Assembly (NCBI GenBank): GCA_965227515.1
Contig: CBDDFZ010000001.1
Coordinates: 512,001 to 576,000 of the forward strand
Direction: 5' to 3'
Source of the DNA: Alphaproteobacteria bacterium
GTDB lineage: Bacteria; Pseudomonadota; Alphaproteobacteria; CALKHQ01
DNA length: 64,000 nt
Position 1 is the stretch's first letter; each line of letters starts with the position of its first letter. The notes beneath the pieces were generated by a model, which saw nothing but the letters and a program-made list of their open reading frames with translations, searched no databases and had not been told where the DNA came from. The position numbers and the translations under genes are program-made. Positions 18,142 to 49,085 of this stretch are shown one piece after another.

Positions 18142-21100
18142 ATGGCCAAAGCGGCAAAAGCCCCGGCGGCGATATCGCTGGACGACCGCTACGAGCAGCT
18201 CGACGGGCGGGTCTATCTGACCGGCACCCAGGCGCTGGTGCGCCTGCCGATGATGCAGCGCCGGCGCGACGAGGCGGCGGGCCTGAACACCGCCTGCTAC
18301 GTCTCCGGCTATCGCGGCTCGCCACTCGGCGGGCTCGACCAGCAGATGTGGCACGCCAAACAGTTCGTGGAGCGCCACCACATCAAGTTCCAGCCCGGCG
18401 TGAACGAGGACATGGCGGCGACCGCGATCTGGGGCACCCAGTCGGTCCACCTCTACGGCAAGCCGAAATACGACGGCGTGGTCGGCATCTGGTACGGCAA
18501 GGGCCCCGGCGTGGATCGAACGGGTGACGTGTTCAAGCACGCCAATCTGGCCGGCACCTCACCACATGGCGGCGTGTTGGCGCTGGCCGGCGACGACCAC
18601 ATGGCGAAGTCGTCGACCACCGCCCACCAGTCCGACTTCGCGTTCGTCGACGCCTCGATCCCGACCATGAACCCGGCCGGCGTGCAGGAGTTCATGGACC
18701 TGGGCCTCTATGGCATCGCCATGTCGCGGTTCTCCGGCCTGTGGATCGGCATGAAGTGCGTCGCCGATACCGTGGAGAGTGCCGCGTCGGTGTCGGTGGA
18801 CCCGCAGCGGGTGAACATCGTCTTGCCCGAAGACGTGCCCAACACCCCCGGCGGCCGCGGCGTGCGCTGGCCCGATGGCATGCTGGAGCAGGAGGCCCGC
18901 CTGCACGAGGTGAAGCTGCCGGCGGCGATGGCGTTCCTGCGCGCCAACAGCCTGGACCGGGTGATCTGGCGGCCGAAGGGCTCCCGGCTGGGCATCGTCA
19001 CCGCCGGCAAGTCCTATCTGGACGTGCGCCAGGCGCTGGACGAGCTGGGCGTCGACGAGGTCGACGCCGCGCGCCTGGGCATCGCGATGATGAAGATCGC
19101 CGTCACCTGGCCGATCGAGCCGAACGGCATCGCCGCGTTCGCCGACGGGCTGGACGAGATCCTGGTCGTCGAGGAGAAGCGCGGGCTGATCGAACCGCAG
19201 CTCAAGGACATTCTGTATGGCATGCCGGCCGACCGGCGGCCGCGCATCGTCGGCAAGCGCGACGAGAAGGGCCGCGACCTGTTGCCGGCGCCGGGCGAGC
19301 TGACCCCGGCGCGGATCGCGCGCACCATCGCCGCCCGCCTGAAGCGCATCGAGGACGTCGACGACCCGGAGATCGCGGCCAAGCTGAAATGGCTGGACCG
19401 TAAGGAAAAGGCGATGCAGCGCGTGACCGCGCCGCTGCAGCGCACGCCCTATTTCTGTTCCGGCTGCCCGCACAACAGCTCGACCAAGATCCCCGACGGC
19501 AGTGTCCAGCTCGCCGGCATCGGCTGCCACTACATGGTGGTGTGGACCGACCGCAACGCCAAGACCTTCAGCCAGATGGGCGGCGAGGGCATGGCCTGGT
19601 GCGGCGCCAGCGCCTTCACCGAAATCCCGCACGCCTTCGCCAATCTGGGCGACGGCACCTATTTCCACAGCGGCATCATGGCGATCCGCGCCGCCGTCGC
19701 GTCCGGCGCCAACATCACCTACAAGATCCTCTACAACGACGCGGTGGCGATGACCGGCGGCCAGCCGGTGGACGGGCCGCTTAGCGTGCCGCGGATCACC
19801 CAGCAGGTCCGCGCCGAGGGCGTCAACCGCATCGCCGTGGTCACCGACGAGCCGCAGAAATATCCGCTGGCCGCCGGTTTCGCCGAGGGCGTGACCATCC
19901 ACCACCGCGACGACCTGGACGCCGTGCAGCGCGACCTGCGCGAGGTGAAGGGATGCTCGGTGCTGGTCTACGACCAGACGTGTGCGGCGGAGAAGCGGCG
20001 CCGGCGCAAGCGCGGCACCTTCCCCGACCCGGCGCGCCGGGTGGTGATCAACGAGCGGGTGTGCGAGGGCTGCGGCGACTGTTCGGTGCAGTCGAACTGC
20101 CTGTCGGTGGTGCCGGTGGAGACCCCGTTCGGCCGCAAGCGCGCCATCGACCAGTCGTCCTGCAACAAGGACTATTCGTGCCTGAAGGGCTTCTGCCCCA
20201 GCTTCGTGACGGTGGAGGGCGGCAAGCTGCGCACGCCCAAGACCGTGAAACCGACCACCGATCCGGCCCGGCAATGGACGGCGGAGGTGCCCGAGCCCGA
20301 TCTGCCGGCGGTCGACGCGCCCTACAACATCGTCGTCACCGGCATCGGCGGCACCGGCGTCGTGACCATCGGCGCGCTGCTGGGCATGGCCGCCCACATC
20401 GACGGCAAGGGCTGCTCGGTGATGGACATGACCGGCCTGGCGCAAAAGGGCGGCGCCGTGGTCAGCCACATCCGCATCGCCGACGAGCCGGACGCGCTGC
20501 ACGCCGTGCGGATTGCCGCCGGCGGGGCCAATTTGATCCTGGGCTGCGATATGGTGGTGACCGCCGGGTTCGAGACCATGGCCAAGGCGCAGAAGGGCGT
20601 GACCCGCGCCATCGTCAACGACAAAGAGACGGTGACCGCCGATTTCACCCGCAACCCGGACCAGCCCTTCCCCGGCGACGGGCTGCGCCACACCATCGTC
20701 CAGGGTGCCGGCAAGGACGCCGCCGAGTTCGTGTCGGCGACCCGGCTGGCCACCGCCCTGCTGGGCAATTCGATCGCCACCAACCTGTTCATGCTGGGCT
20801 ATGCCTGGCAGCGCGGCCTGGTGCCGGTGAGCGCCGAGGCGCTGGAGACAGCCATCGCGCTCAATGGCGTCGCGGTGGAGGCGAACAAGCGCGCCTTCCT
20901 GTGGGGCCGGCGCGCCGCCGTGGACATGGCGGCGGTCGAGCGGGCCGCCGCACCCCTGGACGCCGAGAAGGACCGACCGAGTGCCGAGCCGGTGCCGGAC
21001 ACGCTGGAGGCGATCCGCGCGCACCGGGCGGAATTCCTGGTCGGCTACCAGAACCGGGCCTATGCCGACCGCTATACCGCACTGGTCGACAAGGTGGCCG

Positions 21101-46360: not shown

Positions 46361-46665
46361 TGTCACCCTCGGCCTTGCGCCTGCTGGGCTCATACTTCAC
46401 ACCAACACAACATCGTCATCCTCGGGCTTGTCCCGAGGATCCATTCATGGGGCGGTCCGCGCCAGTGCCGATCGAAGCTGAAGTGGTGAGCCATTGCATC
46501 CATGCGCTCGCCAATCCAGGCGCCGAATCACCTCAACCTATCGAGGTTCTGGACAAATATGGGTCCTCGCCACAAGGGCGAGGACGACAATGGTTTAGTT
46601 CTTGAGAAATCGAGCGAAGCCTTGCGAGATGTGCGAAGCCCGCAGGGACAAGCCCGAGGACGACG
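46361..46665. repeat. Nested REP-doublet cluster
   Basis: Inner arms 46410-46444 and 46559-46594; outer inverted arms 46361-46390 and 46637-46665. Confidence 0.75.
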
Positions 46666-46798
46666 GTGTGAATTTGCCAATCAAGTAGATGGGCTAACGG
46701 CCCTTGTTTGGTGGCGTGCATGAGTGGTCGTCCCTCAAGATGTCGGTGTCATACACGGAGTCGGGTTTGCCGCTCCAAGACATCGAGGAGAGACGACC

Positions 46799-47842
46799 AT
46801 GAACTACTATGCCGGGATTGACGTTTCTTTGGAATGGTCATCGGTATGCGTTGTTGACGGCGCGGGCGGGATTGTCTGCGAGGCTCGTATTGCGAGCACG
46901 CCGGCGGGTTTGTTGTTGTGGTTTGGGTCTTTGGGGATTTCGGTTGAGCGGATTGGTCTTGAGGCGGGGCCGTTGTCGCAATGGCTTGTGCGGGAGTGCG
47001 CGCAGGGCGGTCTTTCGGTTGAGTTGCTGGAGACGCGTCATGTTGCGCGGGCCCTTTCGACGATGCCGGTGAAGTCGGACCGCTCGGACGCACGCGGGAT
47101 TGCTCAGCTGATGCGTGTGGGCTGGTTTCGTCCGGTTCACTGCAAGTCTTTGGCGGCCCAGGAGATGCGGGCCCTTTTGAAGGGTCGCGACCAGCTCCGC
47201 GCGAAGCTGCACGATCTTGAGATGCACCTTCGTGGTCAGCTGCGGAACTTCGGGCTGAAGGTAGGGCACACCACCAGGCGCAGCTTTTCGACACGTATTT
47301 CGGAGCTTGTGGCGGGGCATCCGGTACTGGAGGCGGTGGCGGGGGCGCTGCTGTCGGCACGCGATGGCCTGTTGCTATCGTTCACGGCGCTGGACCGGCA
47401 GGTCCGGGCGGCGGCGCAGGCCGACGATCGCGCTCGCCTGCTGATGACGGTGCCGGGCGTGGGGAGCATTGTCGGACTGACCTACTTGTCGGGAGTGGAC
47501 GACCCCGGGCGGTTTGCCTCGTCGCGCCTGGTGGGTGCGCACTTCGGCCTGACGCCGACCAAGCGCCAGTCGGGCGAGAGCGAGGTGATGGGGCGGATAT
47601 CGAAGGTAGGGGACGCCGATGTGCGCTCGGCCCTCTATGAGGCGGCACACGTGGTTCTGACCCGGCCGATCGAGGGCGGCTGGCTGAAGAGCTGGGCGAT
47701 GAAGCTGGCCAGGCGTGCGGGCATGAGGAAGGCGAAGGTCGCGCTGGCGCGCCGGCTCGCCGTGATCATGCACCGGATGTGGGTTGACGGCACACCGTTC
47801 AACCATGCCGGACCGGTGCGCCCGGCGATGGCGACAGCATGA
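46799..47842 (+). CDS. IS110-family DEDD recombinase/transposase
   Basis: AGIDVS, GLEAG, KSDRSDARGIA, TVPGVG, FGLTP..QSG, ISKVG, KAKVALARRLA; GAGGAG RBS. Confidence 0.96.
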   Translation: MNYYAGIDVSLEWSSVCVVDGAGGIVCEARIASTPAGLLLWFGSLGISVERIGLEAGPLSQWLVRECAQGGLSVELLETRHVARALSTMPVKSDRSDARGIAQLMRVGWFRPVHCKSLAAQEMRALLKGRDQLRAKLHDLEMHLRGQLRNFGLKVGHTTRRSFSTRISELVAGHPVLEAVAGALLSARDGLLLSFTALDRQVRAAAQADDRARLLMTVPGVGSIVGLTYLSGVDDPGRFASSRLVGAHFGLTPTKRQSGESEVMGRISKVGDADVRSALYEAAHVVLTRPIEGGWLKSWAMKLARRAGMRKAKVALARRLAVIMHRMWVDGTPFNHAGPVRPAMATA

Positions 47843-47874
47843 TGGCCGCGGCATAAGGAGAACCGACACACGAG

Positions 47875-48075
47875 CTTCGACGGGCACCGACACCGGCCCG
47901 TCGAGCGCCGTCCCGCGCCGGGACGATGGATCAGGTCAGGCCGCCATCCGGGATGTCGCCTCGCATGAGAGCACGCTTCCGTAGATTGGACCGACCGATC
48001 CTCGCATATCCATCTTGGCGGCGGCCCTGCGCCGACCCCGTACAGAAGCATGACCCAGGCGCCGGGACGACGAAA
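47875..48075 (+). ncRNA. Predicted bridge/seek RNA of the IS110 element (boundaries approximate)
   Basis: Target-matching segments CCATCCGGG (47944-47952) and GTAG (47981-47984); donor-junction-matching segments CCATCT (48010-48015) and TACAGAAG (48041-48048); each pair flanks an inner hairpin. Confidence 0.8.
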
Positions 48076-48108
48076 AAGGGATTGACCAACAATGGCCCGT
48101 TACAGAAG

Positions 48109-48194
48109 CCCGGATGGAGCGAAGCACAATCCGGGGAAATGGCCACGGCTGGCGCGGAATTACCCCGGGTTCCACTGCGTTCCACCCGGGCTAC
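48109..48194. repeat. GTAG-type REP doublet, first copy interrupted by IS110
   Basis: [GTAG]CCCGGATGGAGCGAAGCACAATCCGGGG plus intact inverted copy GTAGCCCGGGTGGAACGCAGTGGAACCCGGGG (minus strand, 48194-48163). Confidence 0.85.
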
Positions 48195-48209
48195 GGAGAA
48201 ACATCGCCC

Positions 48210-49085
48210 TCAATTCAGTTTCGCGCGCAGTTGCTGGATCAGAGCGGCGGTCAGGTGGCGGCGCGACTGGCTGTCATCGCAGGCGAGCGATTCCTCCAGC
48301 GTCATGACGGCGGCGCGCAGATTGCCGAGTTCGGCATGCAACATCCCCATGTCGCGCCAGGCGAGCGGGTTCTGCGGGCCGATCCAGGTCATCGCCTCCA
48401 CCACGGCCAGCGCGTCCTCGAACCGGCGCTGGCGGATCAACCGCAGGCGCAAATTCTCCTGCAGCCGCATCAGGATGTCCCGGTTGCTCAGGGGCGCGTG
48501 GTGGGCCGGTTCCAGCTCCGCCTGCTCGCCCAGCGCCGCCTTCACCAACCGGCGCAAATCATGGGCTTCCAACAGATTGCCATTGTGGAACGGATCGACG
48601 ACAAGGCGCCCCTCCGCGCCGCTCAGCGCGATCAGGAAATGGCCGGGGAAGTTCATGCCGTCGGCCGGCCAGCCCTGGGCGCGGGCCACGTGCAAGTAGA
48701 TGATCGACAGCGCGACCGGCAGGCCCTTTCGCCGGTCGATCACCCGCAGCAGATTGGCATTCTGCAGGTCGTTATAGGTGTCCTGGTCGCCGCTGTAGCC
48801 ATTGGCCCCGGCGATCACCGCGCGCAGGGTTTCCACCCGTCCCGATAGCCCGTCAGCGCCTTTCAGCGCCACCGCCTCGGCCATCGCCTGCAAATGGCGG
48901 CGATAGTGGTCCAGGTCGGCGCCAGGCCGGGTGAGCAGGCCCAGGCGCAGCGCCACCTCGGTCAGGTCGACGTCCTCGTCGGTCTGGCCGCCGACGTCAC
49001 GCAGATACTGCTTGGTGTCCGTGTCGAGCACGCGGTTCCCGTGGCGGGCGCGCAGCTGTGTGACTCCGGCCGCGGCTTCCATCAC
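48210..49085 (-). CDS. SirB1-family (transglutaminase-like + TPR) protein
   Basis: VIDRRKGLPVALSIIY, GMNFPGHFL, VDPF, ILMR..NL, RDMG. Confidence 0.88.
   Translation of the reverse strand: MMEAAAGVTQLRARHGNRVLDTDTKQYLRDVGGQTDEDVDLTEVALRLGLLTRPGADLDHYRRHLQAMAEAVALKGADGLSGRVETLRAVIAGANGYSGDQDTYNDLQNANLLRVIDRRKGLPVALSIIYLHVARAQGWPADGMNFPGHFLIALSGAEGRLVVDPFHNGNLLEAHDLRRLVKAALGEQAELEPAHHAPLSNRDILMRLQENLRLRLIRQRRFEDALAVVEAMTWIGPQNPLAWRDMGMLHAELGNLRAAVMTLEESLACDDSQSRRHLTAALIQQLRAKLN

Follow-up and report, generated by a model that had tools for sequence, protein, structure and literature searches.

Introduction

How does an insertion sequence (IS) come to lie at one exact point of a repetitive extragenic palindrome (REP), and what set that REP apart from the intact, inverted copy beside it? 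The question is raised by a 1420-bp IS110-family element at positions 46689-48108 of a 64,000-nucleotide stretch of an alphaproteobacterial genome (hereafter the window; G000:C1:512001-576000, the source genome comprising two contigs of 4.07 and 1.45 Mb with 66.6% G+C). The element is very probably an active or recently active IS1111-type IS that undergoes site-specific, RNA-guided insertion into a REP family associated with a REP-associated tyrosine transposase (RAYT). This reading is built on the observed anatomy of the junctions, a census of the copies, the protein family, a conserved RNA scaffold, and the covariation of guides with flanks.

Junctions and the interrupted REP

The features that define the junctions are as follows (window coordinates).

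46685..46688, + strand: GTAG head of the interrupted REP, the left half of the target, whose final AG is the core held in common with the element's right end (sequence; GTAG in 21/21 copies)
46689..48108, + strand: insertion sequence, 1420 bp, with AG-ambiguous boundaries (20 full copies of 1414-1429 bp and one deleted copy of 825 bp, identical end points)
48109..48136, + strand: right part of the interrupted REP, with the palindrome CCCGGAT...ATCCGGG (sequence)
48194-48163, - strand: intact inverted partner REP (GTAGCCCGGGTGG...), unoccupied; full string GTAGCCCGGGTGGAACGCAGTGGAACCCGGGG (sequence and pattern search)

Read directly in the sequence, the left flank ends in ...CAAGTAG, with GTAG at 46685-46688; the element opens with ATGGGCTAACGG at 46689 and closes with ...CCCGTTACAGAAG at 48108 (final bases ...ACAGAAG), and the bases to its right, 48109-48136, are CCCGGATGGAGCGAAGCACAATCCGGGG. 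It follows from these letters that removal of 46689-48108 restores a REP, and excision in silico indeed yields GTAGCCCGGATGG...CCGGGG, parallel to the intact inverted REP at 48194-48163, as an initial annotation of the window had stated. Likewise, its claim that AG is the only repeat and that no longer duplication is present agrees with the junction letters (left flank ..GTAG, element end ..GAAG). The boundaries are therefore ambiguous by two bases, 46687-48106 being equally valid, and the interruption of a REP at GTAG with only AG shared is confirmed. Site-specific insertion without terminal inverted repeats and without target duplication beyond a short common core, here AG and at one and the same point in 21/21 copies, is what is seen in the IS110 family. 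The partner REP, as had also been noted, departs from the complement of the proposed guide at one position (G for A); the pair formed there would be a U-G wobble rather than a true mismatch.

GTAG occurs at 19,995 of 11,036,160 positions (~0.18%), against which the recurrence of the same flanks and end points in 21/21 copies is a signal far above chance. The 13-mer pattern is not enriched inside the window alone (5 matches with at most 2 mismatches versus 2.25 expected), so that the signal rests on the junctions and the genome-wide copies.

Genomic copies and their sites

A BLAST search of the element against its own genome returned 22 segments, corresponding to 20 full-length copies (1414-1429 bp, 89.8-100% identical) and one internally deleted copy represented by two segments, distributed over both replicons and in both orientations. 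When the copies were oriented on the element and 45 bases were read on each side, GTAG stood immediately to the left and CC(C/T)GG(A/G)TG immediately to the right in 21/21 cases, with identical end points throughout; the right flanks were CCCGGATG (9 copies), CCTGGGTG (9), CCCGGGTG (2), and CCTGGATG (1). Unrelated flanks and different end points, the observations that the initial annotation had named as telling against itself, occurred in none of the 21 copies, and the insertion point is fixed after GTAG. Its prediction that every copy should sit at GT^AG^CCCGGATGG was borne out as regards GTAG and the end points; with only 9/21 copies at CCCGGATG, it was too strict as regards the right flank. 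A second sub-lineage, with one base changed in its guide, accounts for most copies at CCT sites.

Upstream of GTAG, each of the 21 copies has a sequence of its own, and the copies therefore represent separate, independent insertions. This bears on the proposal that an IS-plus-REP unit was spread by segmental duplication or homologous recombination, with no site-specific insertion at all. Such a history would find some encouragement in the further repeats that certain right flanks have in common beyond the REP (e.g., ...GAGGTGAAGGT in 4 copies) and in a single mosaic copy; nevertheless, the distinct upstream sequences, the exact termination of similarity at GTAG and at the REP, and the presence of copies on both replicons and in both orientations make it extremely improbable.

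The open frame is kept in 20/20 full copies (347 aa in 18, 345 aa in 2) and measures 236 aa in the deleted copy. Two types can be distinguished: a 1420-bp type with 13 copies, to which the window's element belongs, and a 1429-bp type with 7 copies, which is ~96% identical to the first (90% for one of the seven). The copy at C1:926326-927754 (L014) is a clean mosaic that matches the window type as far as element position 1070 and the second type from 1106, with a second-type part that includes the 9-bp insertion and an A at the variable guide base described below; conversion or recombination between co-resident copies therefore occurs. The deleted copy (G000:C1:998357-999181; loci L021 and L022; 825 bp) retains both ends, has lost the 3' part of the gene together with the entire guide region, and sits between GTAG and CCTGGGTGG.

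Element architecture and family assignment

The element comprises a transposase gene flanked by non-coding regions and imperfect sub-terminal inverted repeats.

46695..46712, + strand: left sub-terminal inverted repeat, beginning TAACGG, 6 bp inside the end (14/18 positions match the reverse complement of 48085-48102)
46799..47842, + strand: transposase gene, 347 aa, with a DEDD/RuvC-like N-terminal domain and an IS110-type C-terminal domain bearing a GL-P----SG motif (Pfam, NCBIfam, and IS621 alignment)
47843..48108, + strand: 3' non-coding region, 266 bp; predicted source of a seekRNA/bridge RNA (scaffold kept in relatives at 45-68% protein identity)
48085..48102, + strand: right sub-terminal inverted repeat, ending CCGTTA, 6 bp from the end (paired with 46695-46712)

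Membership of the IS110 family, as initially annotated, is borne out by matches of the transposase to PF01548 (47.9 bits versus a cut-off of 29, residues 5-150), PF02371 (73.2 bits versus 21.3), and NF033542, the IS110 family RNA-guided transposase (239.4 bits versus 140, profile positions 1-343 of 343). The N-terminal domain call is that of the PF01548 profile. The C-terminal domain aligns with the IS621 transposase 8wt6 (E 2.6e-11) with GLTP....SG kept (GLTPTKRQSGES versus GLTPRRYESGSS), and in the same search the N-terminal stretch had no significant match to 8wt6 (0.7 bits).

The family label holds in the wide sense; the branch, as judged from sequence features, is IS1111 rather than IS110 proper, because the longer non-coding region is on the 3' side of the gene (266 bp, versus 110 bp on the 5' side) and because sub-terminal inverted repeats are present, both of which are described as IS1111-group features (PMC11187229; PMC11208160). 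The repeats lie 6 bp from each end, or 8 and 4 bp if the AG is given to the left, and thus differ slightly from the offsets of 7 and 3 bp quoted for that group (PMC11187229).

At the joint of right and left ends, no -35 box (TTGACN/TTGNCA) was found with a -10 box (at least 4/6) at a spacing of 16-18 bp. A TTGACC at 48082-48087, whose spacing from the right end is constant, is conserved in relatives as GGGATTGAC or GCTTGACC; if the element were circular, this hexamer would stand 17 bp before GAAG-AT (3/6; the hyphen marks the joint), a possible, weak candidate for a junction promoter.

Predicted guide RNA

Four features are proposed within the 3' non-coding region.

47928..48001, + strand: predicted target-binding stem-loop; outer stem 47928-47943 with 47986-48001, internal loop with two guides and an inner hairpin (fold and alignment)
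47944..47952, + strand: guide for the right half of the target, CCAUCCGGG, which complements CCCGGATGG on the top strand of the REP (sequence, covariation)
47977..47984, + strand: left-target guide UUCCGUAG, with the sense of the top strand on the left of the insertion point and predicted to pair with the opposite strand (sequence)
48042..48048, + strand: internal ACAGAAG, a repeat of the final 7 bases of the element and a candidate guide for the donor, i.e., the right end (covaries with the right end in relatives)

At the DNA level, the right guide, CCATCCGGG (47944-47952), is an exact 9-nt reverse complement of the right flank CCCGGATGG; it also resembles the REP's own 3' arm (ATCCGGG). The left guide, TTCCGTAG, matches the GTAG of the window copy and up to CCGTAG of other copies (47979-47984), and is followed directly by an invariant AGAUUG. 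The match to the top strand thus lies 5' of the match to the bottom strand, the order described for IS1111 seekRNAs (PMC11187229), as far as sequence and covariation can place the guides.

The outer stem is supported only by an alignment; single-sequence folding was not significant. With RNAalifold, 17 sequences (16 of 37 scaffold hits, near-identical copies having been dropped, plus L039 added by hand) gave an outer stem with 17 predicted pairs, of which 4 persist despite substitutions in both partners; the model covers the outer stem, the alignment being poor over the inner hairpin and the putative donor-binding segment. The internal heptamer covaries with the right end (ACAGAAG here, AGAGAAG in L045-L058 and in L054, AGCGAAG in L052), and on the evidence of these few lineages it would fit the donor-binding segment of a longer bridge RNA, potential donor-binding nucleotides having been described for many predicted IS1111 bridge RNAs (PMC11208160). 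A further repeat, CGCCGGGACGA, occurs twice in direct orientation in the same region, at the start of the target-binding stem-loop (47914-47926) and after the candidate donor segment (48058-48070).

Guide-target covariation inside the genome

Among the 20 copies that carry a guide, base 47950, inside the right guide, is G in 13 and A in 7, a difference that coincides with the 1420-bp (G) and 1429-bp (A) types. Copies with a G guide are found at CCC sites in 11 cases and at CCT sites in 2, and those with an A guide at CCC in 0 and at CCT in 7 (Fisher p = 4.6e-4). The departures from complementarity at guide positions 1-8 in these copies would all be G-U/G-T wobbles, and guide position 9 is not respected (A or C in 6 copies). 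For the G guide, 9/27 perfect CCCGGATG heads are occupied versus 2/62 CCCGGGTG heads (33% versus 3%, about tenfold; Fisher p = 2.6e-4). A genome-wide preference of the right guide among REPs is clear.

The initial annotation had proposed that the perfectly matching REP of the pair was the one used. Statistically, this stands for the right guide; on the left side the partner matches better, its TCCGTAG agreeing with the left guide at 7/8 positions versus 4/8 (GTAG only) at the used site, so that the proposal is true of the right guide only. The partner REP would be usable in principle, as 2 copies sit at its variant, CCCGGGTG. The mosaic copy at C1:926326, with its A guide, lies at a CCT site and fits the view that the guide, and not the bulk of the protein, sets the site; if conversion followed insertion, it is uninformative on site choice.

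These data can be joined into a more specific proposal, in which co-resident sub-lineages split the REPs by one guide base (47950 G to CCC, A to CCT), the occupancies are an in vivo readout of what an rU-dG wobble costs an IS1111 seekRNA, and the RNA takes the place of the REP 3' arm on the 5' arm of the hairpin, the guide itself being perhaps REP-derived. The last two points are suggested by the fact that the guide copies the REP's own 3' arm. Taken as a whole the proposal is tentative, and we lean slightly away from it.

Relatives and cross-lineage covariation

A protein scan of genome contigs recovered 29 loci, mostly from alphaproteobacterial metagenome bins, whose best segments are 43-69% identical. 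Their common scaffold reads GGGACGATGG..GG.(C/G)AG..CG, guide, hairpin, guide, AGATTG, and the two guide segments are its most variable parts. For 12 elements with an identifiable guide and right end, the longest complementary run between guide and right flank was taken as the score. The runs against the elements' own flanks were 9, 5, 9, 4, 8, 9, 9, 9, 4, 10, 7, and 3 (mean 7.2), versus a mean of 3.4 and a maximum of 6 against flanks of other target classes (124 pairs); when pairings were shuffled with one representative per class, the observed sum was reached in 0/20,000 permutations. The window's second type contributes a run of 5 under strict pairing and 9 with wobble. Unscored loci either have the same guide as a scored locus (L040, L048, L049, L050, L051, L058), are truncated or reach a contig end (L036, L037, L041, L061), or have a broken gene or a scaffold and right end not both found by the patterns (L044, L052-L057, L062, L063).

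The left guide matches the left flank over 7-8 nt in L046, L047, and L050, over 5-7 in L043 and L045, and over only 2-4 in L035, L036, L038, L051, and L058. Within one group (L045-L051 and L058, from alphaproteobacterial metagenome bins), the right guide is common and its target, CGGACAT, is an arm of the palindrome ATGTCCGC...CGGACAT; the left guides of this group differ (TCCATAAG, CCCGATAG, CCACTTAG, CCGAAAAG) and partly match the variable loop of the target repeat. In this lineage the left guide appears to turn over quickly.

It is against this covariation that recognition of the REP sequence or hairpin by protein alone must be measured, in which case the 9-nt complement would be incidental, for example a captured REP fragment. 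The likeness of the guide to the REP 3' arm (ATCCGGG) would sit well with a captured fragment, the guide RNA is a prediction, and its single-sequence fold is unexceptional. Against this, the same scaffold position in relatives carries other 8-10-nt complements of flanks that are not REPs (0/20,000 permutations), a one-base guide variant follows the REP variant within the genome, and dependence on a seekRNA or bridge RNA has been established experimentally for the family (PMC11187229; PMC11208160); recognition by protein alone is accordingly very improbable.

Observations that weigh against RNA guidance

Several results weigh against the RNA-guided reading or temper the figures given above. As regards the RNA itself, a single-sequence fold of the non-coding region was no better than shuffles (z = -1.58, -0.56), Rfam yielded 0 matches for 46500-48400 even with E values up to 1 allowed, and none of the sequencing runs listed is an RNA run covering the locus. 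As regards pairing, 3 of the 12 scored elements mismatch their own right flank (L038 with a run of 4, L046 with 4, L060 with 3), L038 being a misfit on both sides and L046 on the right side only, where its left guide CCCGATAG equals the left flank. Matches of the left guide are often just 3-5 nt, and in the window's genome no preference is seen for this guide beyond GTAG (C at -5 in 16/21 occupied versus 86/123 unoccupied heads). Within that genome, 2/13 G-guide copies sit at CCT sites, which conversion between copies could explain; by the same token, gene conversion after insertion, as the mosaic C1:926326 illustrates, could blur or partly create the association of guide and site. Shared ancestry within each sub-lineage also means that the Fisher tests overstate independence.

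Nor was an empty allele or a circular form encountered. In a search of 40 relative genomes, no empty allele was found and the element's DNA matched only the window's own genome; in the nearest genus the left gene is only 77-80% identical and the two flanking genes lie ~15 kb apart, so that there is no orthologous empty site among the 40. No circle junction was seen in the assembled contigs of four runs (the joint of 48108 to 46689 is not listed). None of these contigs joins across the element, and there is no junction contig with at least 31 letters on both sides, an outcome that weighs neither way on the empty allele or the circle. Contig depth over the element is well above that of the flanks in runs X1 and X2, and the ends of one X2 contig coincide with 46685 and 48113; both are hints at the contig level only.

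The REP family as target

A pattern census of the genome gave 123 unoccupied GTAGCCNGGNTGN heads (CCCGGGTG 60, CCTGGGTG 33, CCCGGATG 18, CCTGGATG 3, others 9), to which the 21 occupied heads are added. These are short multicopy units in which a conserved tetranucleotide at the 5' end precedes an imperfect palindrome, as in REPs generally; GTAG is reportedly the tetranucleotide recognized by RAYTs. Two Y1_Tnp matches are present in the genome. The first belongs to a RAYT gene (L065, ORF 1447-1974; a 175-aa open reading frame; NF047646, 189.1 bits versus a cut-off of 80) that is bracketed by inverted REP heads GTAGCCCGGGTG at G000:C1:1603786 (+) and 1604429 (-), and is likely the mobilizing enzyme of the targeted REP family. 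The second (C1:2017088-2017375) is more weakly annotated, and the nearest 1.5 kb on either side of it contain no REP head. The target is multicopy, as the initial annotation had held, and is a genuine RAYT-associated REP.

The palindrome (CCCGGAT...ATCCGGG) lies directly 3' of the crossover. Recognition may be dual, RNA-DNA pairing setting the register and the REP hairpin also being read as a structure by the transposase and being required if insertion is to be efficient or faithful. At 21/21 sites the palindrome is retained to the right of the crossover, the relatives L045-L058 also insert beside a palindrome (ATGTCCGC ... CGGACAT), and for ISPpu10 a stem-loop in the target has been reported to contribute to specificity as a second determinant (10.64898/2026.03.19.712850, a 2026 preprint). 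The guide, however, pairs with one arm of the palindrome, so that sequence and structure are confounded, and the right flanks of L042, L043, and L059 have no obvious palindrome by eye. Dual recognition is on balance rather unlikely, and would be more a refinement of RNA guidance than a substitute for it.

Immediately left of the element, at 46404-46460 and 46544-46603, are two further families of short repeats. They correspond to ~76 and ~175 BLAST segments in the genome, respectively, show very high contig depth in run X1, and hold GC-rich hairpins (e.g., CCTCGGGCTTGTCCCGAGG and GTCCTCGCC..GGCGAGGAC).

Proposed mechanism and significance

On the RNA-guided reading, the 3' non-coding region would encode a structured seekRNA/bridge RNA whose internal loop presents the two guides. 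Immediately to the right of the crossover, CCAUCCGGG would pair with CCCGGATGG, the 5' arm of the REP palindrome on the top strand; immediately to its left, (UU)CCGUAG would pair with the GTAG head on the bottom strand. Strand exchange would take place at the AG common to target and element, leaving the element between GT-AG and CC with no duplication beyond AG. The element would have multiplied to 21 copies because the REP is multicopy and extragenic, and two sub-lineages one guide base apart (G/A at 47950) would have come to occupy the matching REP variants (CCC/CCT). We infer that the RNA is produced, that it is bound by the transposase, and that the intermediate is circular.

The element clearly exemplifies a mechanism that is already known, and is an ordinary case of it. 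The RNA basis of IS110/IS1111 targeting was published in 2024 (PMC11187229; PMC11208160), and with REP targeting also in print, existing knowledge is unchanged. What the genome offers is a clean, internally controlled natural example, in which two guide variants coexist with 21 insertions and 123 unoccupied heads of known sequence variants; this yields a small natural specificity table of perfect and wobble sites. If the split of sub-lineages is true, occupancies of 33% versus 3% would be a natural in vivo measure of the cost of one rU-dG wobble to an IS1111 seekRNA; for GTAG followed by CCCGGATGG, CCCGGGTGG, CCTGGGTGG, or CCTGGATGG, the model would predict a preference that swaps with the base at 47950 and drops several-fold per wobble. 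We have not seen the one-base guide split or such an occupancy table described, the literature search not having been aimed there, and make no claim that they are unpublished. The element also provides, for an alphaproteobacterial lineage unstudied at the bench, a defined scaffold in which two segments are programmable. For annotation, the 21 loci constitute one IS family in REPs, and the 3' non-coding region is to be annotated as a guide RNA gene.

Comparison with known systems

Targeting of REPs by the IS110 family has long been known (IS621, ISPpu10, and a survey by Tobes and Pareja). The repeats themselves are in keeping with RAYT-associated REPs and bacterial interspersed mosaic elements (BIMEs), being multicopy, composed of a 5' GTAG and an imperfect palindrome, often arranged in inverted pairs, and accompanied by a tyrosine transposase gene between inverted REPs; nothing in them is unusual.

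Among IS elements, ISPa11 of Pseudomonas aeruginosa is likened to the present element as an IS1111-type, REP-targeting IS whose 3' non-coding region gives rise to a short RNA that co-purifies with the transposase, and in whose seekRNA the top-strand match is likewise 5' of the bottom-strand match (PMC11187229). It belongs to another host clade and targets another REP sequence, and the likeness is one of description rather than of sequence.

ISPpu9 and ISPpu10 of Pseudomonas putida, members of the IS110 family, are also multicopy and occupy a fixed position in REPs; ISPpu9 recombines between the AG of the target and that of the element, with AG at both ends, and its sites are frequently located in REPs arranged as inverted pairs (BIMEs) (PMC12288879). 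An additional determinant reported for ISPpu10 is a stem-loop in the target (10.64898/2026.03.19.712850). ISPpu9 nevertheless differs in belonging to the IS110 group, in having no sub-terminal inverted repeats and placing its RNA features upstream, in carrying modular ssr9 cargo and A/B boxes (none of which is seen in the present element), and in inserting between REP positions 9 and 10, whereas the present element inserts after position 4 (GTAG).

Lastly, IS621 of E. coli resembles the element in its DEDD and PF02371 recombinase and its REP target, its structured RNA pairing with both target strands around a 2-nt core (PMC11208160), and the C-terminal domains align (E 2.6e-11). The two differ in that the bridge RNA of IS621 lies in the left end with the guide order reversed, and the significant sequence match between the transposases is confined to the C-terminal domain.

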